Origin: a virus
Taxonomy: Duplodnaviria; Caudoviricetes
Length of the DNA stretch: 59,379 nucleotides
Strand: one strand, 5' to 3'
Virus record (IMG/VR): IMGVR_UViG_3300020420_000015
Coordinates: 1-59,379 of that record
Below the pieces are notes generated by a model. The model did no database searches. It saw only the letters and a program-made list of their open reading frames with translations, and was not told where the DNA came from. The first letter of the stretch is position 1. Each line of letters starts with the position of its first letter. This document shows positions 19,271 to 44,700 of the stretch, in pieces. Both the position numbers and the translations under genes were made by a program.

Positions 19271-19512
19271 GTATCGCTAACACAACGATTTATCAAAACT
19301 GATTTTGCAAGCTCTAACAAAAACACCATATCCGGACCCTTGCCATGTGATGTGGCCATAAACAAGTTGCCTTCATCAGTCCACCCAACAACAAGTGCCT
19401 CTGTCATGGAAACCTCTTCACGAAGCACACCCAGCATTTCTTTTGGGTCTAAATCAGGGTCTTCATGTATAGAAGGGTTACCCGGAAATTGTATTATATT
19501 TGTCATCTTCAA
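19267..19512 (-). CDS. Hypothetical protein
   Basis: Coupled to terL start; NIIQFP N-terminus. Confidence 0.65.
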   Translation of the reverse strand: MKMTNIIQFPGNPSIHEDPDLDPKEMLGVLREEVSMTEALVVGWTDEGNLFMATSHGKGPDMVFLLELAKSVLINRCVSDT

Positions 19513-19702
19513 TTTCTTCCAGAATCTCTATTCTGTCTCGGTGTATTGATATTTTATCAAGTTCACCCTGAATAGCTTCAAGAATATCGGAATGCTCTCC
19601 TATTCCTGCTGGATTAGATAGATAAACATTTATGTTTGTTTTGTGCAACTGAATGTTGCCGTGTGCCTGAGCAATCAAAGCACGGATTATTTCTTCTTTC
19701 AT
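19478..19702 (-). CDS. Hypothetical protein
   Basis: YLSNPAGIGEHSDI.EAI motif; GGAG SD upstream. Confidence 0.65.
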   Translation of the reverse strand: MKEEIIRALIAQAHGNIQLHKTNINVYLSNPAGIGEHSDILEAIQGELDKISIHRDRIEILEEIEDDKYNTISG

Positions 19703-19833
19703 ACTTAACTCCCTCTCCCTAGAAAATGACGGCGGGGGAGCAAACTAGTATTTGCTCAACCCCACCGGGGGTGTCGGGAGACGTTACACCCCAAGTAACT
19801 ATACAACACAGTTACCTGTTACACTAGACTCAG

Positions 19834-19882
19834 GTATATATCTATATTAATATATATATATATATAATATATATATCATATA
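19834..19882. repeat. (TA)n-rich tract between divergent genes
   Basis: TATATATCTATATTAATATATATATATATATAATATATATATCATATA. Confidence 0.85.
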
Positions 19883-19897
19883 AGGGAGAGACTGGTA

Positions 19898-20110
19898 ATG
19901 AAAGAATTTGCTATTGCATTGAGCATTTGGACCCACACAGGCACAGAATGGGTTTTGGAAAGTCAAGACGTGTTAAAGGAAACATCCTATCAAGAACATT
20001 GCGAATTTTCATCTTATGAAGAGATGAAACATGAGGGTAGTGAAAATAGATATTTTAAAGTGATTGTTCAATGTTATCCTGTTTCTTGCTCTGAAAAGGA
20101 ACTATGCTAA
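19898..20110 (+). CDS. Hypothetical protein
   Basis: GGGAGAG SD upstream; first of three coupled + strand ORFs. Confidence 0.6.
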   Translation: MKEFAIALSIWTHTGTEWVLESQDVLKETSYQEHCEFSSYEEMKHEGSENRYFKVIVQCYPVSCSEKELC

Positions 20111-20359
20111 ATGTTTAAGGCCTTTATAGTAGCTTGTCACATAGCTAATCCTGCTGACTGCATACTCATAAGTGATGACCGTGGCCCTTATGACACTGAG
20201 GAAGAATGCAAAACTCGTATTGTAGAAATGATTGAAGACTCGATAGATGTATTCAGAATGATACAAGTTCCCATGATATTTAAGCTGACAAGCTGTGTAC
20301 ACCCAGACGATATGGAATTTACAAATGTCAACATTACTGACCAATATTCCAAACGCTAA
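20111..20359 (+). CDS. Hypothetical Cys-containing protein
   Basis: MFKAFIVAC...C...D.RGPY.TEEEC..R. Confidence 0.65.
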   Translation: MFKAFIVACHIANPADCILISDDRGPYDTEEECKTRIVEMIEDSIDVFRMIQVPMIFKLTSCVHPDDMEFTNVNITDQYSKR

Positions 20360-20960
20360 AGTTTATGTTCGCAAAGAGTATCTTATGGACCACCAAGAGG
20401 GGCATGGTGAGTTCATAGAGGGCCATTGGGTAACAGCAAAGTCCATTCCCGGCAGAGCTTTCTACTTTGAGACATACCTGCCGCAATATGGCGCTTTATA
20501 TGATAAATTACCGATTAGTGCCTTTTTATCAGAGCCAAAAACCCCAGAACCAGACCTGTCCCTGCCAAATCTGCAATTCTGGAACTGCATGGACTATGGC
20601 GTTACGTCTATTTACAAGCAGTTTATCGGGTCTATGGACTTTGAAGTCCGAACCAGAGACTCTGGTAATTTTTACGGCACATATATCTGCACATTAGACA
20701 ACTACCATGCACAGGCAGATGAAATAGACTACTCAACGTCCGAAATTCCCGAAGAACACAAGTCATTTAACCTGATAGAGCTAGAAAACGGGCAATATGC
20801 ACTGTACCCAAACAACAGAATGCGGGTATATGACAACTCTCTAACCCCAGAAAACCCGTTAATGCCCGATTTTAAGGTATCCACCGACTATTATCAGGTA
20901 GAATCAGGCAACAAATACCGCCTAGGGGACACAGAAGAGTATTTTTACGAAAAAAATTAG
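20325..20960 (+). CDS. Conserved phage hypothetical protein
   Basis: YVRKEYL...KSIPGRAFYFE.YL..YGALYDKLPISAF...PNNR; ATG 20325 preferred over GTG 20295. Confidence 0.75.
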   Translation: MSTLLTNIPNAKVYVRKEYLMDHQEGHGEFIEGHWVTAKSIPGRAFYFETYLPQYGALYDKLPISAFLSEPKTPEPDLSLPNLQFWNCMDYGVTSIYKQFIGSMDFEVRTRDSGNFYGTYICTLDNYHAQADEIDYSTSEIPEEHKSFNLIELENGQYALYPNNRMRVYDNSLTPENPLMPDFKVSTDYYQVESGNKYRLGDTEEYFYEKN

Positions 20961-21053
20961 TACGAGGGTTAGGATTCCTACCCCTATTTTCCCGAAAAAC
21001 ACCCGGGGGGAAAATAAACTATTTGTATCATGGTACAAATTAGGGGGTGGGGG

Positions 21054-21302
21054 TCATTGTATAGTGGGTTTAGTGGTATATTCCCAGTAATCCCATATCT
21101 CACGCCTTCTCTTCTCCACGATAAATAGAAGTATATTCCTCTCTATTTCGCTCAGAGACGCCCAAGCATCTCTTTCGGCGGGTGTCATACTACATATCAG
21201 ACAAATGCTCTCAGTGGGGCTTAAAACGCCAACAAACCTACAATCATGCTGGCATGGAAGGTCTATGTTTTTTCTTTTGTCATCGGATGTGTAAATCATC
21301 AT
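21054..21302 (-). CDS. DUF1289-like small Cys protein
   Basis: PC...C...ICLIC.MT..E...W pattern; start moved to ATG at 21302. Confidence 0.5.
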   Translation of the reverse strand: MMIYTSDDKRKNIDLPCQHDCRFVGVLSPTESICLICSMTPAERDAWASLSEIERNILLFIVEKRRREIWDYWEYTTKPTIQ

Positions 21303-21389
21303 GTAGTCCGCGTGGGCGGGGCCAGCCCGACAAACGGGTGTGGGGGTAGGGTGGGGTCCGTACATACGCCAAAGTTTGCGTGGGTAGGG

Positions 21390-21860
21390 TCACTCGCCCA
21401 TCAGCAACGCCAAACGCCTCTGCAAATCGGCCTCAATCTCAGACGCTGACCTGTTTGAATTTTCATCTGTCACCACATTATCTGAAAACATACCTATGGA
21501 CCTTCCCAACTGGGTGAGGGCTGAGACCCGTGACGTATCACTGCCAGACACTGCCTCTTCCTTGAGCCTATCAGTCACCCATATTCTCAGGCGGTCCTCG
21601 TCTGTCCGCTTTCGTGCGGTGATTTCCTCAGTTATGGACTTTATCCTCTGTGCAACCTTGGTGTTCTCTGTTGCCAGCTTCGAGGCATTAGCCCATACAG
21701 TGCTTGGTTTTGTGCCTTCCTTAACATCGTAAGCCTGACGGTAGGCTTCTGTCAGTGTTTCACCTTGTGCAACCATCTGGCAAAAGTGTTCCTGCTTGGC
21801 TGTAAGTTTATCACCTGCATCTGTCACTATTGATAGGTGAGGGTGTTTATCTTTTGGCAT
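21390..21860 (-). CDS. terS: Terminase small subunit
   Basis: LTAKQEHFC..VA.G.T..EAYRQAY...ASKL...V..RI...AL..LGR.IGMF. Confidence 0.8.
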   Translation of the reverse strand: MPKDKHPHLSIVTDAGDKLTAKQEHFCQMVAQGETLTEAYRQAYDVKEGTKPSTVWANASKLATENTKVAQRIKSITEEITARKRTDEDRLRIWVTDRLKEEAVSGSDTSRVSALTQLGRSIGMFSDNVVTDENSNRSASEIEADLQRRLALLMGE

Positions 21861-22396
21861 GTTCTATTCCCTTTGTTCTGCCACCATGCGCTATCGCTTG
21901 GTCGGGCTTTCACATTCGTACTATGGAACAAATTATACCAGACCCCATGCAGTTGACGCTACCCATATGCCTTTTAAAGGCGATTTAAAGCCCCGTGAGT
22001 GCCTATCTCTATTTTTGCTCATAATCATACACGGGTATGTCGAGAAACGCCTGTACGGGCAAATAAGGTATTTTGAGCATAAAAATTCGCAGTTTCCCGT
22101 ACAATAATTTGGGGCCATTAAACGTCTATAAATTAAATAAAGAAAATAACTCAAAAGACTTGAATAATACTCAGAATAGTGTATTTAGAGGGTATATTCT
22201 TTTTTTTCAAATTTTGGAGGCCATCGCTACACTTACCGGACACGCCCACGGGGGCAGGGGCTAGCAACCCCGACCATACTGGACCACCACCTATTTACCG
22301 CTTCGATAGCGTCCGGCTTATGCGCAAAATGGGGGTGTAGACTGAGGCAGACATGTTTTGCTGTAACGTATCGGTTTAGAGTACGCCTTGCTTATA

Positions 22397-22449
22397 TCCT
22401 GTCGCTGGCATTGGTAGCCAGTTATGAAGAGACACCAAACGAAACAGGA
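22397..22449 (+). ncRNA. Candidate type III hammerhead ribozyme with variant core
   Basis: Stem III TCCTGT/ACAGGA, GTC site (C22403), stem I GCTGGC/GCCAGT, core TATGAAGA (canonical CTGANGA), 1-bp stem II, GAAA; loop I TTGGT complementary to loop II ACCAA. Confidence 0.6.
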
Positions 22450-22457
22450 GACGTTTT

Positions 22458-22631
22458 ATGTATAAAGTAATAGCTGAAGCACACAATATGAGTGCAGATA
22501 GTACATGTAGAACACTGCAAGATGCTAAGAATGCTTGCGGTGTTATGCTTGAGAAGTTGGGTTATCAGAAAAAAGATATCCACATCATCACGCCTGAAGG
22601 CAAAAAATTATACCTCGTTCCTCAAAAATAG
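22458..22631 (+). CDS. 57-aa early protein (missing from ORF track)
   Basis: AGGAG SD 7 nt upstream; MYKVIAEAHNMSAD...LYLVPQK. Confidence 0.7.
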   Translation: MYKVIAEAHNMSADSTCRTLQDAKNACGVMLEKLGYQKKDIHIITPEGKKLYLVPQK

Positions 22632-22640
22632 GAGAATACA

Positions 22641-22820
22641 TTGGTTGAATATTTCCACATTTATGTAAATGGCGGCCTCACATATGTGGGGCTGGTTTTA
22701 TCTCAGGCCGTACAGGTCATGGATAAATTAAAGGCTGATGGCAACAAGCCAGTTATGAAGTCTTATATGCTGGACCCTGTCGTGCTTGCGGCAATGTCAC
22801 AATCGTATGATGACAACTAA
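22641..22820 (+). CDS. 59-aa early protein, TTG start (missing from ORF track)
   Basis: AGGAG SD; MVEYFHIYVNGG...SQSYDDN; stop abuts the hammerhead at 22821. Confidence 0.65.
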   Translation: MVEYFHIYVNGGLTYVGLVLSQAVQVMDKLKADGNKPVMKSYMLDPVVLAAMSQSYDDN

Positions 22821-22885
22821 GCTACCTGATGATGGGCGCGTAGGACACGCCCGAAACACCGCGCCTTGCGGTGTCGTAGCGTCCT
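22821..22885 (+). ncRNA. Type I hammerhead ribozyme with pseudoknot; predicted cut 22875/22876
   Basis: GCTAC-CTGATGA-T-GGGCG[CGTAGGACA]CGCCC-GAA-ACACCGC[GCCTT]GCGGTGT-C-GTAGC; loop II AGGAC pairs with 3' GTCCT. Confidence 0.92.
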
Positions 22886-22915
22886 GCTACATTCCCTACA
22901 ATTTTGGAGACAAAA

Positions 22916-23587
22916 ATGCAAAACGTAACAAAAATTTTAGACATGGACACACTTAACACAATCAATGCCAATGAGAAAAAAATTGGCAAGCTTAACGGTA
23001 AGGCTTCCGCGATTACAGAAGAACGCCAGAAGCTAAAAATGACTAGCTACTGTCTGCTAGTGTCCGGCATGGCAGGGGCTAAGTTGGATAAAGGTAATTT
23101 TAAGTCTGCCGACAGGACCAACCTGAAGGGTGATTTAATGGACGCTGGCGGCCTGACAGATAGCATGGCCGAAAAGTACATCAAAAATGTCGCTGGTGCT
23201 AAAAATAAGCTTAAGGACCACGGCATTAACTCAGATAACATCACACCAGCTGGTGTTGCTGAAATCTTCGAGGACCAAGGTATTACCTCAGAAGCCAAGC
23301 TTATAAAGTTAATCTCTGGTGACAGTGCAAAGTCTAAGGTAGAGCAATTAGTTGACAAGGTTGCTGGCAAGCGTTCGCGCAAGAAAGATAAAGACGGCAA
23401 CAGTGTAGACGGTGATGCTTGGTTGGGTGGTTTGACAGATGAAGATTTATCTGAATTCCACAACAAACTGGCAGATGCTTTAAGGCTTCGCGGTGAAATA
23501 AAGAAAGCCTCTCAGGCGGCTGGTGATAAGGCTCAGGCTGAGATTGAACAAGTCAATGCAATGTGTGAGCAATTAGGCGCGGCATAG
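22916..23587 (+). CDS. Hypothetical helical early protein bracketed by two hammerheads
   Basis: GGAG SD before ATG 22916 (in frame with track ORF 22904); no recognisable domain. Confidence 0.8.
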   Translation: MQNVTKILDMDTLNTINANEKKIGKLNGKASAITEERQKLKMTSYCLLVSGMAGAKLDKGNFKSADRTNLKGDLMDAGGLTDSMAEKYIKNVAGAKNKLKDHGINSDNITPAGVAEIFEDQGITSEAKLIKLISGDSAKSKVEQLVDKVAGKRSRKKDKDGNSVDGDAWLGGLTDEDLSEFHNKLADALRLRGEIKKASQAAGDKAQAEIEQVNAMCEQLGAA

Positions 23588-23649
23588 CTACCTGACGAGC
23601 CAGCTTAGGACACTGGCGAAACTACCCCACGGGGTAGTCGTAGCGTCCT
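23587..23649 (+). ncRNA. Type I hammerhead ribozyme with pseudoknot; predicted cut 23639/23640
   Basis: GCTAC-CTGACGA-GCCAG[CTTAGGACA]CTGGC-GAA-ACTACCC[CACG]GGGTAGT-C-GTAGC; canonical core; loop II AGGAC pairs with 3' GTCCT. Confidence 0.95.
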
Positions 23650-23678
23650 GCTACATTCAACAACTTATGGAGAAAGTC

Positions 23679-23888
23679 ATGAAAACTTTTGTTCATTTTG
23701 TCGGTATGAGGACTGATGCTGAATACTTAGCCGCAGTCAGAGTTTACGGCAAACCTGATTTCATCCATCTGTATCATGACCGCAGAATGTATGGGGATAT
23801 TGATGCAGATAGGGATATTGTGGTGCTTGGTTCAAAAGGCAGGGATTTACCCTGTGAATATTCAGACCAAGACCATGAGAGACATTAA
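23679..23888 (+). CDS. Small early protein
   Basis: GGAG SD; VHFVG.R...Y..AVRVYG.PDFIH..HD.R. Confidence 0.75.
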   Translation: MKTFVHFVGMRTDAEYLAAVRVYGKPDFIHLYHDRRMYGDIDADRDIVVLGSKGRDLPCEYSDQDHERH

Positions 23889-23910
23889 CAAAAGCATGGG
23901 AGATTTTTAC

Positions 23911-24156
23911 ATGCAGAAACATAGAAGAGACCTACTGTCAGGGTTTTATGGCAGATTTTTCACTGGCTTTTTTACAAAGCTAGACGGTACTGAACGGCCT
24001 GTCTGGGGTGTCATTAAGAATGACCCCAACGTGCCGGACCACTTGTGTGTCGTTTATGACATGCGGTTGAAGCAGTACAGGCGTTTCAATATTGAACTGC
24101 CTTTTAATATTCGTTCAGGTAAAGACTTTATCTGTGCGGCTCATACCAACGCATAA
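23911..24156 (+). CDS. Small SH3/Sm-like (WYL_2/DUF2693-like) protein
   Basis: FF...FTK.DGTER...G...VVYD....YRRF; GGGAG SD before ATG 23911. Confidence 0.55.
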   Translation: MQKHRRDLLSGFYGRFFTGFFTKLDGTERPVWGVIKNDPNVPDHLCVVYDMRLKQYRRFNIELPFNIRSGKDFICAAHTNA

Positions 24157-24168
24157 CGGGAGAAAAAA

Positions 24169-25215
24169 ATGCGTATATCTCAAACTGTTCCTATAATTCA
24201 GAAGGCTATAGAAAGCCAGCTTAATTTTCGTATTTCAAACGGTGGGCGTGATGCTCAACGGCTTATCCCATACTTGCAGGGCAAGGCAGGGCTAGGCAAA
24301 ACCACCTCAATAATCAGCGTATGTGAGGCCAATGATAACTGGTCTTATTTCATTTTATCGCTGGCCCAGTTTGATGCTGGTGAACTTATGGGCGTTATTG
24401 CGATGGACGGTGATAATGCTAAACGTCTGAAGCCACATTGGCTGGTGCATGTTGAACAGCTAGCATCCGATAGTGATGTGGTGGTTCTGTTCTGCGATGA
24501 ATTGGCCCAAGCCCCCGTGGCGAATATGAACGTGGCCCGTCAGTTAATTAACGAGTTACGATGTGGTGATTTTATGTTGCCGGATAATGTCGTTATCGTT
24601 GCGGCTGGCAATCGTGTATCGGACAGGGCTGGGGCAAACAATATCCCAACACATATGAAAGACTGCCTGATGTTTTTGGACGTTGAGGCAGATTTAGATG
24701 ACGCTGTTGGGTATTTGTCAAGCAAAGGTATAAGCCCCGTCATTACTGGGTTTATGCGGTTCCGGCCTGAGTTGCTTAACAAGGTGGACCGTGACGCAGA
24801 CGCTAATCCATCACCCCGTTCTTATGAGAGACTTGATACAGTGCTTTCATGGGGCTTGCCAGAACCTGTTGAAAAAGAGGCAGTTGCTGGCATTTTGGGC
24901 AGGGGTGTATGTGCTGAGTTTTACGGTTACAAGCCTATATTCGACAGTGCCATCACTGTTGATGAGGTGCTTGCTAATCCTACATCAGCACCCGTGCCGG
25001 AAGAACCAGCAGTCTGCTACGCTGTAACATCTGCACTGGCCCACGCCATGACAGATAAAAATGTCGGGGCCATTACCCAGTATCTTGCCCGTTTTGTGCA
25101 TAAAGAATTTTATGTGCTGGCAATGAAAGATGCTTTCAAGCGTACACCTTCACTGAAACAAACACCCGAATTTAGGGCGTTTCTATTAGAGCATGGCGCA
25201 GAACTCATGCTCTAA
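24169..25215 (+). CDS. MoxR-like AAA+ ATPase
   Basis: GKAGLGKT (Walker A), VLFCDE (Walker B), AAGNR, SPRS. Confidence 0.88.
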   Translation: MRISQTVPIIQKAIESQLNFRISNGGRDAQRLIPYLQGKAGLGKTTSIISVCEANDNWSYFILSLAQFDAGELMGVIAMDGDNAKRLKPHWLVHVEQLASDSDVVVLFCDELAQAPVANMNVARQLINELRCGDFMLPDNVVIVAAGNRVSDRAGANNIPTHMKDCLMFLDVEADLDDAVGYLSSKGISPVITGFMRFRPELLNKVDRDADANPSPRSYERLDTVLSWGLPEPVEKEAVAGILGRGVCAEFYGYKPIFDSAITVDEVLANPTSAPVPEEPAVCYAVTSALAHAMTDKNVGAITQYLARFVHKEFYVLAMKDAFKRTPSLKQTPEFRAFLLEHGAELML

Positions 25216-25277
25216 GACATGGGGGCAGGCATGGTCCTGCCCCAATTCATACCATAGTACAAATCGGAGACACAGAT

Positions 25278-26432
25278 ATGGATGCAAATACCAAAATTTC
25301 ACGGGCCAAGACACGGCTCTTATTGGACCAGCCTTTCTGGGGTACGTTCACAATGGGTACGCCATTCTATGCTGATGACAAGGTGGACACTGCTTGCACC
25401 AACGGTCAACACATTAAATGGAACCCGTCTTTTGTTGATACCTTAGAGCCAACCAATACTATTTTCTTGGTTGCTCACGAAATAGGCCACATAGTCTTTC
25501 AGCATTGTAACCCCATTAAAGAAATCGATGGCAAGCCTGTGGACCCTGAGGTTCACAATATGGCACTGGATTATGTGCTTAATGCTATTCTCATAGATGG
25601 CAATGTAGGTGAAATGCCGGAAGGTGGTTTATACGAGCCTAGATATCACGGCTGGCCTTGGATTAAAGTTTACCGTGAATTAATTGCAATGGATAAAGAT
25701 GAACGCCCAAAGTCTCAGCCTTGGGGTGGCAATGTCGGCAATCCTGAGGACGATAACGGTAAGCCCTTGCAGGGCAGTCAGCTTGAACAGCACAACATGG
25801 ATATCGAAAGGCGTGTGTTCATGGCGGCAGAGGCCGCTAAGTCTGCTGGTAAATTACCAGCTGGTATTGATGACCTCGTCACAAAAATGAGACGTTCACG
25901 GGTAGATTGGCGTGATGTCTTTAATCGGTTTATCGGTGGTGAACAGCCGGACGATTACACTTGGCGCAGACCACAGAAAAGAATGTGGTTCCAGCATGGC
26001 GTGTACATGCCTTCAGTAGATAAGGTTGGTGTCGGGGATATTGTCGTTGCTGTAGATAGTTCAGGCTCAACTGGCGGACATCATCGGGAATATTTCTTTG
26101 GTGTTCTTAATCAGGTCATAGAAGACCACAATCCAACTTCTGTTACAATCATTACTTGTGATGCTGAGGTGCAAACAGTCAGGCGTTACGAGCAGGGTGA
26201 CATTGTAGAAGACATGGACGTTAAGGGTGATGGTGGCACGAGAGTAGAACCAGTGTTCAGATATGTCAGTGAAGAAAACATTAAGTGCAATGCTCTTGTT
26301 TATCTCACAGACATGGGCATCTGGGATTTTCCAGACAATAAGCCTGATTACCCCGTTCTGTGGGTATCAACTGACCCCGACTGTGCGGACGCACCTTTTG
26401 GGGAAACAACACGCATACAGGTGGCGGCATAA
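25278..26432 (+). CDS. Metallopeptidase-like plus vWA domain protein (DUF2201 family)
   Basis: TACTNG, AHEIGH zincin motif, VDSSGS MIDAS, GGT, YLTD. Confidence 0.85.
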   Translation: MDANTKISRAKTRLLLDQPFWGTFTMGTPFYADDKVDTACTNGQHIKWNPSFVDTLEPTNTIFLVAHEIGHIVFQHCNPIKEIDGKPVDPEVHNMALDYVLNAILIDGNVGEMPEGGLYEPRYHGWPWIKVYRELIAMDKDERPKSQPWGGNVGNPEDDNGKPLQGSQLEQHNMDIERRVFMAAEAAKSAGKLPAGIDDLVTKMRRSRVDWRDVFNRFIGGEQPDDYTWRRPQKRMWFQHGVYMPSVDKVGVGDIVVAVDSSGSTGGHHREYFFGVLNQVIEDHNPTSVTIITCDAEVQTVRRYEQGDIVEDMDVKGDGGTRVEPVFRYVSEENIKCNALVYLTDMGIWDFPDNKPDYPVLWVSTDPDCADAPFGETTRIQVAA

Positions 26433-26466
26433 TGCCGCTACCTACCTTCAATAACAGGAGACAAAA

Positions 26467-27300
26467 ATGAAAGATGAAATTAGAGATAAGAGTGTCGCAC
26501 AATATAAATACTTGAAATTTTGTTTGCGGCAAATCCGGCTCACAATGGATAATCACAGGGAAATGTGTGACATTAAATTGTTAGCTGATGTAATAAAAGG
26601 CGGTAAATATGATTGGCAAAATGGCGGTGTACTGACCCGTGATGAGCGCAAAGAATTGCAATCTGAGTTTGATAGAAAGGCAGGGCAATATTGCGCTTTT
26701 GAAAAGACGGTTGCTATATACATCAGTCAACTAGCCGACAGTGTAAGTTCAATTAGAAGAAGCTTCAAGGCTCATCAGACATACAATCCTATCAAGCAAG
26801 TCAAAAAAACCTCATTAGATAGGGCCAGAGAAGTGCTTGACAATGGATTTAAAAGAACCAGCACCGCTGTAGTCTGTAATGGGCCGGAAGCTGAACAGTT
26901 GGAAATAGAAGGCGATACTGATTACAGCAGGGTCAACTATGTAAACATACCTGTCCACTGGGTCAGTTCAGTATATAACAAGGGCTTGGGGCTAGTGCAT
27001 TCACCCAAGGGATTGAGGTTTATTGCGAGAGCAATTCCGGCAGATATCCCGTGGGTAAATGATGAAAACATGAATTGCTACAAGGCCGTCAGCATAGGCA
27101 GTCACGATAAAAAATGTTTTGTAGAAGAGGGCTGGATAGTGACGCATCAGGCATCTGTAATTAATGATGTTCAGCCCCTAGTCCATCCGGCAGACAGGAA
27201 GACTGTAACGCCCCATGCCTTCAATGAAAATCTACAGAAGGCTGTTAAGCTTATGAAGTCACGCACCTATAAACACCTTACAAAAATGCTGGACAAATAA
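26467..27300 (+). CDS. Hypothetical protein
   Basis: 277-aa ORF with AGGAG SD. Confidence 0.75.
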   Translation: MKDEIRDKSVAQYKYLKFCLRQIRLTMDNHREMCDIKLLADVIKGGKYDWQNGGVLTRDERKELQSEFDRKAGQYCAFEKTVAIYISQLADSVSSIRRSFKAHQTYNPIKQVKKTSLDRAREVLDNGFKRTSTAVVCNGPEAEQLEIEGDTDYSRVNYVNIPVHWVSSVYNKGLGLVHSPKGLRFIARAIPADIPWVNDENMNCYKAVSIGSHDKKCFVEEGWIVTHQASVINDVQPLVHPADRKTVTPHAFNENLQKAVKLMKSRTYKHLTKMLDK

Positions 27301-27301
27301 A

Positions 27302-27688
27302 ATGATTAAGCACGGCACTGTAAGGGCTGATGGAAAAATGTTTTGGGGATACCACAAGCATGCCAAAAATGGCGAGGAGTGGTGTACCCCATCTGCATTT
27401 ATCAGGCGTAAATCAAAATCTAGAGCGAGGCAATGGATGAACCGCAGACGCAGAACCCATTGGCTTAATAAATATAAACAGCACCACGGGTGTTGTTATT
27501 GTGGTTATGATGATAACGGTATAGCCTTGCAGTTTCATCATACAGGTGACAAAGCATTTAATGTTTCTGACGCACGTTCATACTCACTAAGAAAACTTTT
27601 TAGTGAAATTAGAAAGTGTTTAGTTATCTGCTCTAATTGTCACGCAATCGAAACAACCAGACTACAACAGGCAAGAGGTAAATTATGA
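27302..27688 (+). CDS. HNH endonuclease-like protein
   Basis: C..CGY...ALQFHH...EIRKC..ICSNCH. Confidence 0.75.
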   Translation: MIKHGTVRADGKMFWGYHKHAKNGEEWCTPSAFIRRKSKSRARQWMNRRRRTHWLNKYKQHHGCCYCGYDDNGIALQFHHTGDKAFNVSDARSYSLRKLFSEIRKCLVICSNCHAIETTRLQQARGKL

Positions 27689-27993
27689 CTAAGGATAATA
27701 AAATTTGTACTACCGTACAAAATAAAGTTAATTGCATCGGCCAAACACAACAGGAAATCAATGATGCAAATCATGTGGTAACGATTATCTGGGGTGTGGA
27801 GGGCATTAAAAAAGAGACATTTGGTTTTAGTGACATTGTGTCTTATCATGCCTTTTTATTGGGGGTCGATGCCGCATGCGGATGGATGAAATATGAGGTA
27901 GAGGCAGAGCCTTATTATCATGCCGAACCTTTTGATGCTGACCATCCCAAAACACTAAACTTGACTATGGAGGATGAGCCTAATGATGATTAG
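27685..27993 (+). CDS. Hypothetical protein
   Basis: Coupled ORF; TIIWG...F.LGVDAACGW. Confidence 0.65.
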   Translation: MTKDNKICTTVQNKVNCIGQTQQEINDANHVVTIIWGVEGIKKETFGFSDIVSYHAFLLGVDAACGWMKYEVEAEPYYHAEPFDADHPKTLNLTMEDEPNDD

Positions 27994-28231
27994 CTGGCAC
28001 ACGGCCCCAAGGCATAAATATAAGGGGTATGTTTACAAACCTGACGTAGATGAATACGATGATGGAAACAGAAAGGCTTCTCATAACGTATACGCTGAGG
28101 GTAAAGAAAACTTTATGCATACATTGCCAGAGTTTTATATTCACGCATCACCGTATAGTTTTTTAAGCTTCGAGCAGTTTAAAAATCACGTTGATAAACA
28201 TCTAACAGATAATCGGGAGTTTAGACCATGA
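27974..28231 (+). CDS. Hypothetical protein
   Basis: Coupled ORF in early operon; start may be 27983. Confidence 0.65.
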   Translation: MSLMMISWHTAPRHKYKGYVYKPDVDEYDDGNRKASHNVYAEGKENFMHTLPEFYIHASPYSFLSFEQFKNHVDKHLTDNREFRP

Positions 28232-28395
28232 GAGATTATTTTCTATTTTGGCTAGGCGTTCTGTGCTGTACGTCTGGCATGTCATACATTGAACAGCCAG
28301 AAAATAGTGTACTGGTAGGCATAGCTATTATATACTCAGGCATGGCGGCCTTTGTCTGGGCTGGTGTTAATATGGTAAAAAGGGGTGACGAATGA
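28228..28395 (+). CDS. 55-aa membrane protein (missing from ORF track)
   Basis: MRDYFLFWLGVLCC...VLVGIAIIYSGMAAFVWAGV; ATGA overlaps at both ends. Confidence 0.65.
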   Translation: MRDYFLFWLGVLCCTSGMSYIEQPENSVLVGIAIIYSGMAAFVWAGVNMVKRGDE

Positions 28396-28595
28396 ATATA
28401 GAAAAAGCTAAACAAGCTTATCTTGATGAATGCCATAAAATAGGCAAAGTTCCTCAGCATGTCACCTACATGACCTATGACCAGTACAGTGAAAAATACA
28501 CACTGGGCAATGAAAGTGATGGTGATTTTGTGGATATGTACCCGAACGGGTCAGTCACAGCTATGCACTGGAATTTAAAAAATAACAACAGTTAG
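28392..28595 (+). CDS. Hypothetical protein
   Basis: Last coupled ORF of early operon. Confidence 0.6.
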   Translation: MNIEKAKQAYLDECHKIGKVPQHVTYMTYDQYSEKYTLGNESDGDFVDMYPNGSVTAMHWNLKNNNS

Positions 28596-35419: not shown

Positions 35420-35770
35420 ATGAAATTTAATAGCGATTTCAAATATGATTTAGAGGTTGGGCAAGTAGAAGAAAAGCGGCTTGCCCAACTTTTGTCTGGG
35501 GCTACAATAGAAGTTAAAAGAGACTTCTTGGCTCACAAAACTGGCAATGTTTTTGTTGAGTATGAGAGCAGAGGAAGGCCTTCTGGTATATCAACAACTC
35601 AGGCACAATACTGGGCTTTTATGCTGGAAGGTGACACAATCGTCATAATCAAGACAGAAAGGCTAAAAGATAAATGTCGTGCGGAGTTCCAATCTGGCAG
35701 AACAACATCAGGTGGCGATAGCGACACAAGTAAAGGCGTATTGTTGCCAGTATCTCAACTTACTTTATAA
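35420..35770 (+). CDS. Small PD-(D/E)XK nuclease-fold protein
   Basis: DL..GQ..E...IEVK.D...TGNVFVEY...G.PSGI.TT. Confidence 0.7.
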   Translation: MKFNSDFKYDLEVGQVEEKRLAQLLSGATIEVKRDFLAHKTGNVFVEYESRGRPSGISTTQAQYWAFMLEGDTIVIIKTERLKDKCRAEFQSGRTTSGGDSDTSKGVLLPVSQLTL

Positions 35771-38700
35771 GACCAGCATCTCTCATTATCTTGTTGGCAT
35801 CTTTTACAACAGCACTTATGCGCTCGTTGATGTTTTTAATTAAGACTCTTTTCTGATTTTCTGGCACTACAGGAGAACGATTTATCTTGTTCTTCTGTCG
35901 AAGTAACTTGTTTCTAAAGTTGTTTAAGGCTCTTATTTGTCCAGCTACAGAAAGTTCTTCTCTGTATTTTGACATAACTTCTCTAACACGAGCCTCGTCA
36001 CCGCCCTGTCTTGCAAACTTTAATTCTTCTACTGCTCTATACACATCATCTCTTAGTTGCATAAATGCGCTGGTGTCTTCTTGTGTTGATGGAGATATAT
36101 AAAGCCTTCTGATGAACGGTATCTCCTTAACAACATCACCCTCAAAATCACCTCTCAAAGCATCTACGATGTTTTTAGGAAGTTCTGCGGTTCTCAAGGC
36201 AAAAGCACCAGCACCACCTGTAAAATAATTACCCCAGTATTCCAATATGTTTGGAGACACATCAATAAGGCCCGGAGTTATCTCTGTGCCGCCTATTGAA
36301 TTTAAAGCATTACTGATTGTTTTTGCTGTAGTGCTGGTGTTTGCCCAATACTTTTGAGAGTCAGGTCTTTGCACACCGAAAGGAGAGCCTTCTTTGTATA
36401 TTGGTACTCCTTTAAAGTTTCTGTTTGCCAACAATTCAACAAACGGGTCTCCCACTTCTGGTGACACAAGTGTTGCATAATCCACAGGCTCACTAAAATC
36501 ATTTATGCCGCCAAATGGACTAATTGCATCTAGGAATGTACCCATCGCTGAGTTGAACGCTTGTCCGCTGGAATACTCACCTCTTGAATATCTACTTAAA
36601 ACACGACCAAAATTAGTCGCCATGTTTAATCCATACGCCAGTGGTATTTTTATAAACTTTTCATCACCCGCTACGCCAAATGTAGGAATTATTATGTTAT
36701 GCTCTAAGTGATAGTCTATGAGTTCATCGTAGTCTTTTTGACCGTCATCATCCTCATCACCAGATATTGCGGCATTGAACTGGTCCATCAGTATGCCAGA
36801 CAGCAACAGGCCAGCCCATATCTTTCTTACATTTTTAGACCTGACTGCGGCATTCATTAGGGCAAAGGAGCCTTGCAGGGATGCGTTGTAGAAAAGGTAC
36901 AGCGCATTCATTAACTTTTTCTCTTCGCCAGCTTTGGCAAAGTTTACTGTTACATTTCTTGCGGCTTGAGCTGCCCTTGCTTCAGGGATTCCTCTGTCTA
37001 TTAAGGCTTGGAACGTGGCAACACGGACACCGTTTTCAATGGCTGTGTTATAGTCATCAAGAAACTTTAGCAACTTGTTAAAGCCAATCTTATTTAGGCC
37101 CAGTTTATTTTTTATACCTGTCCCAGTTATATCGTCTAGAAGACCTTTTAGATTACGCATCTGGTCTTCAACGCTATCTACTTGGTTGGTAGAGTTTTTA
37201 CCCCCTGCCTTAACAAATCTTTCAAATGCATCTGTCCAATCTGTTCGCCCATACTTTTCAAAATCATCTGCTCTTAGCTTGCCAAGTATACCTCTTACAG
37301 CAGGCAGTGCATTTTTCATTACTTCTTTGGTCATCGGAGGCTGGTTTTCATACTGAGCCACGTTCACACCAGCAGTCTCCAAGTCACGGAAGAAGTTTGG
37401 AATGGTAAATGATGGGTTGTATGTTGTGTTGATGCTAGACAAGAACCTGTTAAATTTACCTAGCTTGTCAACGACCCAACCACCTCTGCTTATACCATCA
37501 CCGTAAGCACCCTTCATGGCACGGGCAATTCTATCGTCAAATATTAGAACATTAACACGCTCTTTCTGACCGCCTATCTTTACTCTTAATATATTATTTT
37601 CTAACTCTGGGTCATACTCAGTTAGAACCTCTGCAATGCCTGTTGTGTTGATGTCCTTGTCCTGTACAAGATTTAGAAACGACTGACCAACTAGATTTCT
37701 CTCTGCATCAACTATCGTTCTTTGATTTTGGTTCATCACATTAGCAATGATATTTTCTGCATATTGTGTGCCTCTACCCTGTCTTATTCTAGGGTCTTGT
37801 GCAATTCGACCACCGTACAAATTTTGATAGCGTCTGGATGTAATTCTTGGAAGATTGCTAGCATCCTGCTCTATCTCTTCATCAACATCTAAAAGGCCAC
37901 GCAAAGGAACGTAGAAATCAAACTCGTACTCGCTAACCATTAAGCCGCCTCTGCGGCGCTCTTCGTTAGTGCTTTCTATGACCTTTGAAACAATGCCTGC
38001 TATTCTGTTGAAGGTTGCTCTGGATTCTAAATCTAACGTGTCCACCCAATCAATGATTGCTTTGGCTTCTTCGTTTGACATACCAGAACCCATGCCACGA
38101 TTAAATTTATCTTGCACATATCTGTTACGTTCTATGGCATGTTTGGCGTATAGAAATGCCTCCACAGCGGCAAGCTGGTCTGTGTATGTTTCTTTTGCCC
38201 TTGCGTCTCTAAAGAAGCCAGAGATGACATCTAAAGTTTTATACTGAGCATCTGACAAAGATACATCTCGTATGTTTTCACCAATAGGCTCAAACAAATT
38301 CTCTCTGTTTTCGTCTAGCTTTGCACCTATCAGACCTTGAGAAAGCTCCTCACGCATGTACACATCCAGAGCATCACTAACCTTGTAGCCATCTGCCCTT
38401 AATTCATCCATTAACTTTCCTACCGGAAGCATGGCATCTTGAAATTTGGTTAGAAATCTCTCTGACCTAGCGCGAATTACTTCAGACTTCTCATCACCAA
38501 CAAATTTACCAAGAAATTTACTCAACACGTTTGCAGTGTTGTTGTAAGTTACACGGTCTATAAACTCTTCAACCTCTGCGGTTGCCTGAGCAATAGGCGG
38601 CTGTGCTGTTTTAGGAACATCTACGACTTGTGCTTGAGAAAATCTTCTTACGCTTTCTCTTCTAACGAGCGTTTCAAGTCTTTCTGAGAATTCATCGAGT

Positions 38701-41700
38701 TCTCTCCTGAAAGCACTTGGAGCAATCGAGAGGTCTTCTGCGCCATAGATTGGCCTCTGTTCAACTGTACGTTCATCGCTCTCTGCGCGGCTTCTAACAA
38801 TTTCGACTTGTCTTTCATATCCACCTTCCTCTAATATTTTTTTGTAAGCACCATTTGAAAACAAAGTTGCAAAGTCAGGAACATCTGCAATATCAACATC
38901 TGTTATAAGACCTTGTTTTAATAAATCTGTCGCTGAAAGACCTGAGCCACCTTCACTTCTTCTTCTCTCAACTATGGCCTTTGACACACTCCAAACAGTT
39001 TCCTGTATTTCTGATGGACTCCATTGGTCGCCAGTTATTTGACTAGCGGCCTCTGCGGCCTGCCTAACTTTTGCCGAAAACCCAATATATCCACTACTTT
39101 TTATGCCTAATTCACCAATCTCATCTCTGATTGCCTTTCTTTTAGACTCTGAAAATCTATCTTTGTCTATCAGTGCATAATTAGCCATCCATGTGTCATT
39201 GGTGACTTCATCTACAGCGCCAAGAAGATTTAACATAAATGAATTTACTTTAGGTCCGGATATTCTAAGGCTCATCTCAGTGCCTTCTGGGGCAGAAAGC
39301 GCTCTAATTGAATTATTTATCCAAGCTGGCAACACTGATTCAGTGCCTTTGTCGCCTTGCACTGACTCTCCCATTATTCTCATAATGCTTTGTTGGTCTT
39401 TTGGTCGGCCTGATTTATTCCAATTAACCCATATGTTAAGCGTGTTAATTGCGTTTGACTCAACTGATGTTTGTGGAGATGTTGCGGCTAGTAACGCTGT
39501 AAATCTTCTTGCGTCATACAGGCCAAAGAAATCTTGTATTGCTTGTGCGGAGTTTCTGTACCAACCCTTCTTTGCTCTGCCAGCAACAGCAACAGAACCC
39601 ATCTCCTCTGCGCTTGGAATTTCTGTAAATATGTTTACGATTGCTTGAATGCGGTCATTGACATGATGTTTCATGCCAGTTTCTGTTAGCTCTATCTCAT
39701 CTTCGAGCATGTACGGCAGAATATCTGCATATCCCCCGGGCAGGTTTCTTCTGGATTCTTTAACCTCGGACGATTTTTTGCCTACTGGACTTACAGATAA
39801 CCTGTTAAATACTGCCGCCGCCATACCATAATCAGCTTTAGCAAAATATCCCACATACCCAGCGTCCTTTATCATCTTCTCCGTTTGTGTAACAACAAAC
39901 TGATTTATGTAAAGTTCTGGGTTGTTAATATTTTCTATTGATATCTCTCTGACCTTATCTGTAACCATAGCCTCGGCCTTTGCCTTGAAGCCATCTGGGT
40001 CTTCTATAAAGTCATACAGTCCATCTACAGGTATAAAAGTTTCATAGGCATTTTCGCCAGCAAGCCATTCTTTTCTATAGCCCTCTGGGTAACCTACATT
40101 TAATCCGTAGTAACTTCTTGCTTGGAAATCATTGGGGAAGCTGACACGACGAGTATACTCTTCCCCCTTTGCATTGTAGTTAGTGCCTTGTCTCTCTGGC
40201 TCGACTACATCTATAGCACCTTCTTTAGAATAATGTACAAGTCTTGTTAGGCCTTTTTCATCAGTTCTGGGTTTTGTGACTTCAAAATCACTTTCTTCGC
40301 TCTCTGAAACCTCGCCTCCAACGCCCGCTTGTCCATCTCTAATTCTTGTGCCTGCTCTGGTGTTTGGCCCGACAGTTCCTGACGGATAATTTCGTCTGCT
40401 TTCTCTTGAATTTTTGACATCGCTATTTGACTCCATGTCTGGAGCAACGCCTTCTTCAACAACAAAATCTGGCAAAAGAGTTATCTTTTGTTCAGCATAA
40501 ACTGTGTCAGATGGATTTGCTCTGTTCTGTTCTCCCATCGGCCCGAAGTTGACCCAAGAGTTTTGACCTCTTGTTTCTGTAGTCATGGCACGAGCCGCAA
40601 GAGGAGTATACATTCTTACATGCGCTTGCCAAGCATTTTCTTCACCACGGGCAGTGAAGGTGCTTCCCTCAAGCCCGTGACCAAAATAATCATGAACAAT
40701 ACGGAAGACATCATTAACACGCATATCAACGCCATCAACGACTTCATTGGCTCTTTTTAGTAATGGATTTGCGGCTTCGTCTGCTTCTGTTATTGCTTCT
40801 TGACCAAACCCATCATCCGTTGGAAATACCCATAGATGATTGTTGTCCCTTATGTCTATCAGGACATCTCTGCTTCCATTTGGATAAGGGTTCTCTTGGT
40901 CCAATCTTATAAATTCAATTTGTACCCCAGTATCTTTTACAAATTGCCATTGAGCCAAAGTCTCTTCTGCCATTGCGTTGTAAGCGGCACGAGTTTCTGG
41001 GTCAGTTGAGTTGTCCTTTGCCTCTTCAAAAGCTGTGGCAATGCGACCAGCTAAGTCTTTATCTACTTCAACGTAAACTGACTGCCTGCGGTTAGGCATG
41101 TCTACAGACTGTAAATATCTTGTTTTTGCATCTACGACCTGTGGTATTGGCCCGATAAGATTAGACGGTAAATTATCAAGGCGGCGTATAGAATATCTAA
41201 ATCCAGACTTTGCAGAAAATTTAGGATTTCTTGCCAATACAAGAGGGCCAACTTGAACAACAAAATCTGCCGCAATCACAGGCTGTGTTGTCATTCTGTC
41301 ATAAAAGTAGGAGTGACGCTCAGGGTCCATCCCAACTTGAACAACATCTGGGTCATTCATCATTTGTTGTGCAAAGGCAAATGCCTCGTCTGGAGACATT
41401 TTTACATATTTACCTTGCATTGTAGCGATGGTGCTTTTTTCTTTTCCGGTTGCAATTTTTTCTGCCGCCCGTTCTGACATCCCAAAAAGCGCATCTGTTA
41501 TAACCGCTGTGGAATCATAGCCCAAAGCTTCGCCAGCCATAAGATTTTCAGGTATAGCAACAGTGGCGTCCACAAACTTACCATCAACTTGCACTCTGCC
41601 AGAGCCTTCGCGGAACTCAAGATTCTCTAGTTTTTTAATGTTAGGCTTGTGATATGAAACAATCCATGTGCCGTTATCCCTATAAGATGGTATGTCAAGC

Positions 41701-44700
41701 CTTATTCTTACGATATCCCCATCACTCAATATTTGTGACGGCACTCCAACTAAAGTTGACTTTTGGACTTTCTTTTCTCCGGTTCTTGGGTCTGTTGCAG
41801 TGCCAGATATGGAATCCACCATGTTCTCGTATGATTCAGGGGCAGGAACCGTTTCATATGGTATAATTGGCTTAAACTCGTTTACCAGCTTATCGTATCG
41901 CTCGTAATTAATTTCACCTTCAGATAATTTGTTTGCCGCATCTTTGAGTTCAGGTATGCGCTTGGTTACATCCTTAAACGATTGCTCTATCCGCTCTATA
42001 TTGCCACGCTCAGGAATTAAAAATCCTGCACGGACACCAGCAGTAGAGTAACGAGTTTCATTTAATGCCTGTCTTGCCAGATTAATGTTTCTATTTCTGC
42101 GTCCAATCTTTCCAGATTTTATGCCTTCAAATATTTCTGCGGCCTGATTAAATCCAGCTTCTTTATGGGCTGTAAATATAGATTTAAAGAAGTTTACTAT
42201 TCTGCCAAATAAAGTTTTTGGCTTGCCGCCAAGGCGTAGTTTGCCTTCAGCGTATGCACGGAACATTTCTGCAACAGCTTCTTCTTGCTGAAGCTCTGGG
42301 TCCGCATCAGGGTACATGTATTCCGCACGGTCAAGAAAAGTATATTCACGCTCTCTCTTAGCGCCCTTTATGTCCTTTACATACTTTCTTTTCTCTGCGG
42401 CTTTTACAAGTATCTGATATTCCTGCTCCGTAAGAAGGCCTAAATTTTTTATTGCGTGAATGACCTCATGGTTCATAACTGCGGCTAGTCTTTGTTCTAG
42501 CTCTGCGTCACTCATGTTGGGGTCGTATAGGTCCATAGCAAGAGTGATAATTCTCTTGCCGTCCTCTGTTTGCTCAAATGTTCCCTCTGCAAGAGATAAG
42601 TTGTCAGCAGGGATTACATTAGTGGTTACTAACTCTACATCTGTTAGCCCCATCTTAAATAATAGTTTACGAAGGGCGTTGGCTACACGTTGTTTTTTTC
42701 TGCTGTACTCAGGTGTGGGCTGTGTGGCTTCTTCGGCGGCTTTTCTAGCATCGTTTGCCCTTAATTGAAGCGCAGAGTTTTGCTCTGACGGGGGTGGCGA
42801 TATATCTTTTCTGGCATCTATAGCCCTTGAATACCCGTCCACTTTTTCTTGTGCGGTTTCTAATTCACGCTGTTGCTCTGGCGTTTGCACACCTTGCTTT
42901 TTTATTTTATCTAATTTTTTTTCCGCATCCAGCTTTTGCTTTTGTAGCTCAAGAAGATTGTCTTCTCTTTGCTTTGCAGCAACTTCCTCTGGGCTTGGAG
43001 GTGTTGGTTCTTTAGCTGGGTTTACAACTTTAAATTCAGTTGGGCTTATAGGTGTTATGACACCTCTTTTTGTAAGGTCTTCTATAATGCCTGTGGCTAT
43101 ATTGTCCCTTACTTTTAAAGCTTCTTTTAATTTCTTTTTGCTTACCGCACCGTCTTTTCTTACGGCAACACCGCTTTCAACTGCAAGTATTGCCGCCTCT
43201 CTTGACTTGGATACTTCCTGTTCAAATTCTTTTTGCTCTTTTAATTCTTCTTTTTCCTCTGCCGTTAGCTTTTTGTCTGCTGTAGCAGGGTTGAGTTTGG
43301 CATTAGCCCTGTTATATGCCTCAATACCAAGAACAGATTCTATTTCTGATAACGGTGCTGGTTTATCTATGTCAGGTTGACCATTTCTTTGGCGGTTCAT
43401 GCGAATAACCTGAGCCTCAGCATCCGGCAACTCATCTAGCTCTACTTCAAACCTACCAGCCAAGGCTTCTTTAGCGGCCTGAATGCCCACTTGCCGCTCT
43501 TTATCTGGATTTAACCCAAGGCCCAGAATATTTTCTTTTACCTGTTTTCTTTTTTCAAGGGTTTCGCTTGGTGTGTCTGGTTGGTCTGCTAACTCTGGAG
43601 ACGGGAGAGCAAGTCTTGGTGCTTCTATAGCTAATTGACCTTCTGGAATCTCATTTCCATCTGCGTCAAACCTTCTGCCATCCATAGAAGCTCTACCACG
43701 AGCCGCCATTTCTGCGGCCTCTACACCTTCTTCTTGCTGGTCCGCAACCAGTTGTGCCTGTCCTTTAAGAAACTTTTTAACTCTTCTCCCGGCTATTGTT
43801 TCCAACAGGAAGTTGAATGTAGCACCAGCACCACCACCATAAATTGCATCATCTTTGTATGCACTTGCCGCAATTTCAAGGTCAGGATTGTAAAATCCTT
43901 TTTCCGTAAGGTCTTGAAGAACAGCGGCCGTAACTTCTTGGCCACCTTCCGCAAGGCCAGCAACGCCAGCAGACTTGAGCCTACCTCTGATTGTTTTTAC
44001 TGCTTCTTGTTTTGCGTCTTTTGGAACTTTCTTTAAGATATTTGCTAATGCACCAAATACCCTGCCAACAGGCAACGCTTCAGTAGCGCCAATAGCCCCA
44101 CCTGTGAGAATTGCAAGTTGTTTTGAGTCAACATCTTTGCCCTCTTCTAGTGCGCGACCAATACGCTCGTATTGATTTTGTGCGCCAAGAGAAACACCCA
44201 TCGCACCAGCGGCGGCAGTTCCAGCTAATCTAGTTGCAGTTACGCCAGCACCAGCGGCTGATGCTAGCTTCATGCCCCCAGCGGCAGGCACAAGAAACGA
44301 TGCAAGAGAACCAATGGCTTGACCAGACTTGCTCATAATATTGTCATCCGGTGTGCCAACAACGTACTCAACACCAGATTGAAGTGCATCTGTTATGCTT
44401 TGTCCTGCCCGTTCTAAACCTGATTGGTCGCCGGGAAGAATCGCCTCTGTCAATGAGGCTAGACCGCCCGGAATCTGGGCAAAACTATTACCAAAGCCAT
44501 ACGCTGTTCCCTGTATAAGGTCGCCTATGCCACCAACAGTATCTTCTTCTATAAGTTCTGGTTTTTCTGTTTGAAGAAAGCCCTCTCTTCTAGCCATTTC
44601 GGCTAGAATTTTGGTCTTTTCCTCTGGTGTGGGGTCTGACCCAGCAATGCTAACAGGATAGACCTTGCCTGTGTTCGGGCTTGTTGCATAAATAGTACCC

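Follow-up and report, generated by a model that had tools for sequence, protein, structure and literature searches.

Pseudoknotted type I hammerhead ribozymes predicted to process a transcript of a marine tailed phage

Introduction

What purpose might a hammerhead ribozyme serve in the gap between two genes of a marine tailed phage, where a second copy stands at the far end of the next gene? Pseudoknots have been reported in hammerheads of all types, and clusters of hammerheads in prophages flank single genes (Perreault et al. 2011, PMC3088659). According to the available text of that study, transcripts of the prophage clusters were cleaved both in vitro and in E. coli, and it was proposed that long phage transcripts are converted in this way into gene-length mRNAs (PMC3088659). 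In the accessible portion of a 2019 review, the reason for associations between ribozymes and genes was given as undetermined (PMC6765202).

Two other known systems bear on this locus. The hammerhead of CChMVd (+) carries an extra A between A9 and G10.1 (PMC3705267, PMC1636495, citing De la Pena & Flores 2001); from what is available of the same two papers, a U as the insert increased the rate of trans-cleavage 3-4 fold, while C and G were detrimental. RiboJ, which consists of the sTRSV hammerhead and a 23-nt hairpin, raises expression, possibly through its terminal hairpin, as the accessible part of its description has it (PMC6206723).

Pseudoknotted hammerheads of all three types, their gene-flanking clusters in phages (2011), and the inserted residue are already known, and to meet a type I hammerhead with both a pseudoknot and an inserted U in the operon of a phage is in itself to be expected. 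The locus described here most likely joins the pseudoknotted phage hammerheads of Perreault et al. (2011); judged by its sequence it looks genuine but ordinary, and cleavage is predicted. It also presents a clean natural case, with one conserved gene family, abundant marine phages, and two hammerhead topologies in the same slot. Its noteworthy features are this tight link to one gene family across topologies and a covarying hairpin that would form by a flip of one strand of the ribozyme.

The viral record and its gene neighborhood

The window, by which we mean the whole stretch of DNA that was analyzed (59,379 bp), is the complete virus record IMGVR_UViG_3300020420_000015 (CheckV 100%), and its genes include those for a terminase, a portal, tail proteins, and a primase-helicase. 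Half or more of the sampled words of the window were present in 18 DNA runs from marine metagenomes, one of which may be the source sample. By terminase, the nearest named phages are 023Pt_psg01, DSL-LC04, and the Pelagibacter phages HTVC027P and HTVC023P, at 52-58% amino acid identity. The P1 gene and hammerhead described below were not found in these named relatives, where a 13.6-bit match to our covariance model R1 and a 14.9-bit match to the Rfam model RF00008 both proved on inspection to be without a core. Searches of 50,697 phage records by blastn, with a 2 kb query and with the 72-nt ribozyme, and by tblastn with P1 returned nothing relevant; two matches in Mycobacterium phages lay inside the tape-measure gene (E=0.2) and were discarded. 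With no ribozyme or P1 in these records of cultured phages, no ready laboratory system was found.

The first hammerhead of the window (hammerhead 1) occupies an intergenic gap on the plus strand. On one side is a small ORF of 59 aa (22641-22820, +) that belongs to no family and whose stop codon TAA (22818-22820) abuts the ribozyme; on the other are the SD sequence GGAG (22906-22909) and the start codon ATG (22916) of P1, an ORF of 223 aa (22916-23587, +) with no Pfam or PHROG family. Beyond P1 and the second hammerhead lies another small ORF without a family (23679-23888, +), the likely start of which is ATG 23679 behind GGAG 23669-23672. It is followed by an AAA/MoxR-like ATPase gene (phrog_1297; 24169-25215, +), which is syntenic with P1 in related contigs, and by the partner gene of this ATPase, which encodes a DUF2201 metallopeptidase-like and VWA-like protein (25278-26432, +). 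A scan of 19500-28500 for promoters and terminators gave counts at or below the shuffle expectation and was not used. A terminator-like hairpin with a T-rich tail is present at 22673-22694 (+), inside the small ORF and 130 nt upstream of hammerhead 1, in a scan that as a whole was not above shuffle expectation.

Structure of the two hammerheads

A base-by-base reading of the sequence places hammerhead 1, of type I, at 22821-22885 (+). Stem I has 5 bp, formed by GCTAC (22821-22825) and GTAGC (22876-22880), and is followed by the core residues C3-A9, CTGATGA (22826-22832; CUGAUGA in RNA). An inserted T (U in the RNA) stands after A9 at 22833. Stem II, also of 5 bp, pairs GGGCG (22834-22838) with CGCCC (22848-22852) under a 9-nt loop, and the core resumes with G12-A14 as GAA (22853-22855). 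Stem III has 7 bp (ACACCGC 22856-22862 and GCGGTGT 22868-22874) and runs into the GTC triplet at 22873-22875, in which C17 is 22875, with predicted cleavage between 22875 and 22876. A 5-bp pseudoknot pairs AGGAC of loop II (22842-22846) with GTCCT of the tail (22881-22885), directly after stem I. The topology is that of type I, stem I being open with the 5' and 3' ends and loops closing stems II and III. The A15.1-U16.1 pair is A22856-T22874, and residue 17 is C22875, a non-G. A first-pass annotation had described this element, and a reading of the sequence finds each of its parts on the plus strand where it had placed them. Its label '#1' hinted at a partner copy, which is indeed present; the bracketing of one gene and the competing 3' hairpin discussed below were missing from it.

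The partner, hammerhead 2, was located by our own type I descriptor at 23587-23649 (+) and lacks the inserted residue. The P1 stop codon TAG ends on the first G of stem I (23587-23591 with 23640-23644). The core (23592-23598) passes without an insert into stem II (23599-23603 with 23613-23617); GAA is at 23618-23620, and stem III pairs 23621-23627 with 23632-23638. C17 is 23639, with predicted cleavage between 23639 and 23640, and the pseudoknot joins 23607-23611 to 23645-23649. Compared with hammerhead 1, stem I and the complementarity of loop II and tail are identical, while stems II and III differ. The two hammerheads bracket a single ORF, P1 (22916-23587).

Such elements are not expected by chance at this stringency. 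A strict type I descriptor (core, with lengths of at least 5, 5, and 7 for stems I, II, and III) gave two sites in the window, the 22821 copy and 23587-23644, against none in 200 dinucleotide shuffles; a loose pattern of three motifs alone was not significant, with 1 match against 1.57 expected. Descriptors of types II and III found nothing else in the window. A scan of the window with model R1, filters off, revealed no third copy; the window copies themselves score 94.7 and 86.3 bits, which holds by construction, both being rows of the training alignment. The next best match (15.2 bits, E 0.055), at 57936-57970 (+), mimics both ends of the ribozyme, has no core, lies opposite a minus-strand ORF, and is probably due to chance.

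General models were of little help. At the gathering score, Rfam 15 detected no hammerhead in the window or in 17 related loci; a scan of a 301-nt slice at E<=10 gave no usable match, and RF00163, RF02275, and RF02277 gave nothing on the genome at E<=10. The best Rfam score in the window was that of RF00008, 17.6 bits at hammerhead 2 only, below the gathering cut-off of 48.5. We ascribe these misses to a limit of the models and do not take them to mean that hammerheads are lacking; there is an entire group of well-formed phage hammerheads that the current Rfam models fail to detect. Nested folding, for its part, disfavors stem I: minimum free energy (MFE) folding and RNAalifold choose the 3' hairpin or an extended helix of loop II and tail. 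The hammerhead junction was calculated at -25.4 versus -26.5 kcal/mol for the alternative, with the pseudoknot not counted, and the pseudoknot duplex is worth roughly -5.4 kcal/mol. Because the junction and the alternative fold lie so near in energy, these models allow that a sizeable part of the RNA population may be inactive.

Relatives and covariation

IMG/VR was scanned twice, once with an 18-mer from the 3' part and once with a pattern of core and loop II that specified neither stem I nor stem III. All 33 marine viral contigs retrieved carry a full hammerhead, and they hold 48 copies. In bacterial and archaeal contigs (one genome per species), the same pattern of core and loop II gave 16 matches, none of which was a hammerhead by model R1. 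The descriptor yielded 34 distinct sequences, of which 32 were aligned; those of L011 and L014, with a stem III longer by 23 nt, were left out, and copies found later by the model alone (two distinct sequences) are also outside the alignment.

Among the 32 distinct sequences, 99.6% of 698 cells pair (shuffled mean 84%), and compensatory changes on both sides occur in 14 of the 22 pairs (4/5 in stem I, 4/5 in stem II, 4/7 in stem III, and 2/5 in the pseudoknot), counts and cells that are not independent events, many of the loci and contigs being close relatives. In stems I, II, and III all cells are paired, and 12 of the 17 stem pairs show compensation; the pairing descriptor had preselected most of the aligned sequences, which inflates the percentage for these stems and not that for the pseudoknot or the 3' hairpin. 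When partners were slid by 1-3 columns, pairing fell to 24-51%. The pseudoknot helix (alignment columns 22-26/61-65) is paired in 98.1% of cells, with compensation from A-U to G-C in 5 sequences and from G-C to A-U in 6, and its 3 unpaired cells all come from a single sequence, L018c, in which a 4-bp pseudoknot is offset by one column. In keeping stems and pseudoknot through compensatory changes, these 32 relatives support the type I fold with a pseudoknot between loop II and the 3' tail that had been proposed from the sequence of hammerhead 1. The accompanying claim, that loop II contacts allow fast cleavage at low Mg2+, matches the available text of Perreault et al., by which pseudoknots were needed for fast cleavage at 0.5 mM Mg2+ (PMC3088659).

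Of the 13 core positions, C3, U4, G5, A6, G8, A9, G12, A13, and A14 among them, all are invariant in the 32 sequences except N7, which varies as expected (U, C, or A). The A15.1-U16.1 pair (columns 36-54) is AU, residue 17 (column 55) is C, and the G10.1-C11.1 pair is GC in 32/32. Between A9 and this last pair, one residue is inserted in 26 of the sequences, U in 24 and G in 2, and in the other 6 it is absent. This distribution fits the statement of the first-pass annotation that an extra residue is tolerated in some natural hammerheads, a deviation documented as compatible with activity in what is available of PMC3705267. Stem II and its loop can be identical with and without the insert, as in the two copies of L013; on this comparison, therefore, the insertion is facultative. 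The extra U at 22833 appears to be tolerated and possibly mildly helpful, and is no defining feature.

Further type I variants were recognized by the covariance model only (L005 11079-11151; L010 3533-3605; L015 6909-6981, -; L017 7994-8066, -; L011 4972-5043). In these, stem II contains a bulged C and positions 15.2-16.2 form a C.U mismatch, with pseudoknot and 3' hairpin intact; their place is just before the ATPase gene.

Association with the P1 gene family

Little can be said of the P1 protein itself. Its AF2 model is mostly helical (pLDDT 81). P1 had no match in Pfam or PHROG and no sequence match in the PDB better than E=0.028, and the model had no fold match in the PDB at E<=0.001. BFVD holds one uncharacterized relative, and the Atlas yields only clusters of 'hypothetical protein'. 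By profile search the family has at least 186 metagenomic proteins, and the best 120 of these 186 homologues lack both a Pfam domain and an informative name.

The hammerhead, on the other hand, keeps close company with this gene. It was found just upstream of a P1 homologue (26-99% identity) in 32/32 assessable records; 2 further records end too soon downstream of the ribozyme for P1 to be assessed. A MoxR-like ATPase gene follows P1 in the 30 records whose contig reaches that far, and the DUF2201/VWA gene comes next where the contig extends. Of the 32 records, 10 have a second hammerhead directly after P1 and 5 have one behind two small ORFs, immediately in front of the ATPase gene; one record, L018, has three type I copies, and 17 have a single hammerhead. 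All copies are intergenic and on the coding strand.

Because these first loci had been found through the ribozyme, the search was repeated starting from the P1 protein. The P1 profile gave 57 loci, many of them on contigs already found via the ribozyme. A type I hammerhead lies directly upstream of the P1 homologue in 34 of the 57, and in 2 more it is found only downstream. Of the 21 loci without type I, 20 were searched with RF00008, and in 11 of these it matched directly upstream of P1 at 28.7-42.8 bits, under its cut-off of 48.5. Our own type III descriptor, which gave 0.15 matches per shuffled set, detected copies in 19 of the 57 loci, every one of them on the coding strand, and added L067, L100, and L101, bringing the type III loci upstream of P1 to 14. 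A hammerhead is thus found right before P1 in at least 48 of 57 loci (34 type I and 14 type III). Since type I and type III both occur upstream of P1, two topologies serve the same gene boundary.

The type III copies fall into two families. The second hammerhead family has a 7-bp stem I, a stem II of 1-2 bp, and a 5-nt kissing complementarity between loops I and II (L007 6388-6443; L009 11850-11792, -; L012 4908-4957; L016 1183-1238; L018 9527-9475, -; L023 4781-4731, -; L034 11534-11583; L067 1440-1490). It lies about 350-900 nt upstream of the type I copy, or in L067 directly before P1, and is not present in the window. The third family has a 6-bp stem I and a stem II that is of 4 bp or a longer branched one (L078 1380-1433; L100/L101 1184-1237; L092/L094 1426-1475; L103, L104, L106, and L109-L113 at about 1360-1460). 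Its members stand directly upstream of distant P1 homologues (25-43% identity) and score 28.7-42.8 bits with RF00008, below the cut-off of 48.5; in L100 and L101 the type III copy is accompanied by a type I copy downstream of P1. In three loci, a GC-rich terminator-like hairpin is found before P1 with no ribozyme (L064 and L068 at about 1415-1445, L105 at about 1420-1480), which suggests the same transcript boundary set in another way.

A conserved hairpin behind the cleavage site

Directly after the pseudoknot partner, the 5' strand of stem I occurs once more, both in the window copies and in the relatives of the alignment. The 15 nt behind the cleavage site can in consequence form a 5-bp hairpin that is mutually exclusive with stem I. 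In hammerhead 1 this hairpin spans 22876-22890 (+), pairing 22876-22880 with 22886-22890 and leaving the pseudoknot partner (22881-22885) as its loop; that of hammerhead 2 spans 23640-23654 (+) and has the same design, with the repeat at 23650-23654. Across the 32-sequence alignment, 97.5% of the cells of this helix pair, and the 4 unpaired cells are those of L018c, where the same hairpin forms with a 7-nt loop. At its closing pair, G-C is replaced by A-U in 7 sequences and by G.U in 6, and 2 sequences have changes on both sides of a second pair. The G.U replacements in 6 sequences indicate that the constraint on the 3' repeat is RNA pairing and not identity of a DNA repeat.

Folding programs also favor this hairpin. 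RNAalifold, in which no pseudoknots are modeled, returns a consensus of stems II and III with the 3' hairpin and without stem I, and in the MFE folds of both predicted 3' products the hairpin stands at the very 5' end. A hairpin built in at this place suggests a purpose for the cut.

Proposed processing of the operon transcript

We consider it probable that the two cis-acting type I hammerheads of this rightward operon of a marine tailed phage process a polycistronic transcript, their cleavage being predicted, and the most likely role of this processing would be to provide defined 5' ends for P1 and the downstream genes. Stems II and III would fold while the transcript is being made, and the 5' pentamer would pair with the strand behind the cleavage site as stem I. 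The next five bases would pair with loop II in a pseudoknot that holds stems I and II side by side, and the core, going by the chemistry of the family, would cut after C22875 and C23639 at cellular Mg2+. The predicted cleavage would free a single-gene P1 mRNA of 764 nt (22876-23639) with a leader of 40 nt. Each downstream RNA would carry a 5'-OH, followed by the 5-bp hairpin made of the released stem I strand and the downstream repeat, and the upstream RNA would retain the compact ribozyme body and end in a 2',3'-cyclic phosphate. Such a ribozyme insulator would likely serve to make P1, and likewise the ATPase and VWA genes, independent of their neighbors in stability and translation. Type I copies, by the flip hairpin, and type III copies, by their own stem I, would both yield a P1 mRNA with a hairpin starting at its first base.

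Metatranscriptomic material touched the site once: a contig from an RNA library (X20, a relative) is unbroken over 22746-23007, across the site of hammerhead 1, although contigs cannot show ends, and it represents either uncleaved RNA or carried-over DNA. The two RNA runs, used in small shares and as contigs only, place the sequence of a relative in an RNA library, and the parts of the stretch left uncovered are uninformative.

A more specific form of this proposal can be put forward tentatively, as possible though somewhat doubtful. The locus may be a natural 'one-shot' insulator, in which the same 15 nt build the active site and then flip to a terminal hairpin, the architecture of the 5' end, and not cleavage as such, being the selected trait. 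The flip would make cleavage irreversible, the downstream mRNA would gain a protected 5'-OH hairpin end, and type I, by flipping, and type III, by its own stem I hairpin, would converge on a P1 mRNA with a hairpin at +1. If true, this would be a concrete and testable answer, in at least one case, to a question that has long stood open, the purpose of phage hammerheads.

The same hairpin lends itself to a different reading, in which 22876-22890 is the OFF state of a regulated switch, competing with stem I and sequestering the pseudoknot partner. Cleavage, and hence expression of P1, would then not be constitutive; the kinetics of folding, translation upstream, or a bound factor would govern it. 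Hairpin and stem I do exclude each other at similar energy, and the hairpin covaries and is the RNAalifold consensus. Stem I moreover begins 0-1 nt behind the end of the upstream ORF or overlaps with it, and its 5' strand would accordingly be covered by a ribosome terminating there. However, the hairpin is equally well explained as a trap for the product of cleavage or as a cap-like hairpin at the 5' end, and no ligand-like or protein-binding element is evident. In addition, transcription reaches the competing strand just 1 nt beyond the completed ribozyme, which would leave a switch little kinetic window. The present evidence does not distinguish ON/OFF control from constitutive cleavage, and a switch seems to us rather unlikely.

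Beyond simple processing by the two cuts, the excised 764-nt P1 RNA might be joined end to end, or the flanking RNAs spliced together, through a hybrid hammerhead (the core of hammerhead 2 with the 3' strand of hammerhead 1) or by a host ligase of the RtcB type. The possibility was raised by Perreault et al. (PMC3088659); ends with 5'-OH and 2',3'-cyclic phosphate would, by the chemistry of the family, suit such ligations, and the window copies share identical stem I and pseudoknot strands, with which a hybrid would pair perfectly. Of 10 bracketing pairs, however, just 3 cross-pair perfectly; in the other 7 the hybrid is mismatched while the helices of each ribozyme itself are perfect, so selection appears to act on the cis fold. 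A single hammerhead is present in 17 of 32 records, and the 3' hairpin would sequester the 5' end. According to the available text, Perreault et al. searched their clusters for circular or spliced products and detected none (PMC3088659), and no back-splice joint was seen in the RNA-library contigs, the only form in which those data were searched. On the sequence evidence circularization is unlikely as a conserved function, and we give it very little weight as an account of this locus. It is equally improbable that the elements are inactive, as decaying or selfish hammerhead-like repeats or as structured RNA or DNA (a protein-binding site or a transcription pause), for although Rfam models stay below threshold and the five-base direct repeats flanking each element (22821-22825 and 22886-22890 in hammerhead 1) could in principle be an insertion footprint, the catalytic core is invariant and the changes in the stems are compensatory, the 3' repeat loses its identity in 6 sequences with G.U pairing kept, all copies are intergenic on the coding strand, and independent hammerhead topologies occupy the same site.

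Relation to known systems

Processing by cis-acting hammerheads, the preferred reading, has its nearest precedent in the prophage elements of Perreault et al. (2011). As in those, the core is canonical and a 4-6 bp pseudoknot replaces the loop-loop contacts of stems I and II, and as in those clusters, several ribozymes flank single genes or short blocks. In contrast to them, the present copies occur in uncultured marine phages and with one conserved family, P1, upstream of the pair of MoxR-ATPase and VWA genes, whereas the flanked genes of the prophage clusters are called 'not constant' in the available text (PMC3088659). In that text no mention was found of a conserved 3' hairpin made with the 3' strand of stem I (PMC3088659). 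The present sequences may already be in the data set of the 2011 study, the supplementary alignments of which lay outside our comparison.

With CChMVd (+), the phage copies share a single inserted nucleotide at the same place in the core. The CChMVd (+) ribozyme, however, is of type III, carries A, and serves rolling-circle replication, whereas the phage copies are of type I and have U, G, or no insert. Like RiboJ, the locus has a hammerhead followed by a hairpin and then a ribosome-binding site, so that after cleavage the mRNA would start with a hairpin; in RiboJ, going by the accessible part of the source, expression is both buffered from upstream context and raised (PMC6206723). RiboJ was engineered with a separate add-on hairpin, whereas the phage hairpin is built from a stem I strand and the pseudoknot partner, and the comparison is one of working alike, not of family membership. 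The Rfam families Hammerhead_1 (RF00163) and Hammerhead_3 (RF00008) have the same catalytic core and three-way junction, and the window copies score below their curated thresholds. A full-text search of the literature gave, among the matches listed, no paper linking hammerheads to these phages; a narrower search gave a single, unrelated perspective article.

Other features of the window and its relatives

Two observations stand apart from the hammerheads. One of the related marine viral contigs carries a match to the Rfam Mu-gpT-DE RNA above threshold (L034 285-337, -; 56.5 bits, cut-off 49). In the window itself, an ORF of 2979 aa (35760-44702, -) has matches in its C-terminal 900 residues, all of them to PHROGs of unknown function, and adjoins a gene with a lysin or tape-measure-like domain; because of this neighbor, the ORF may encode a giant virion protein.
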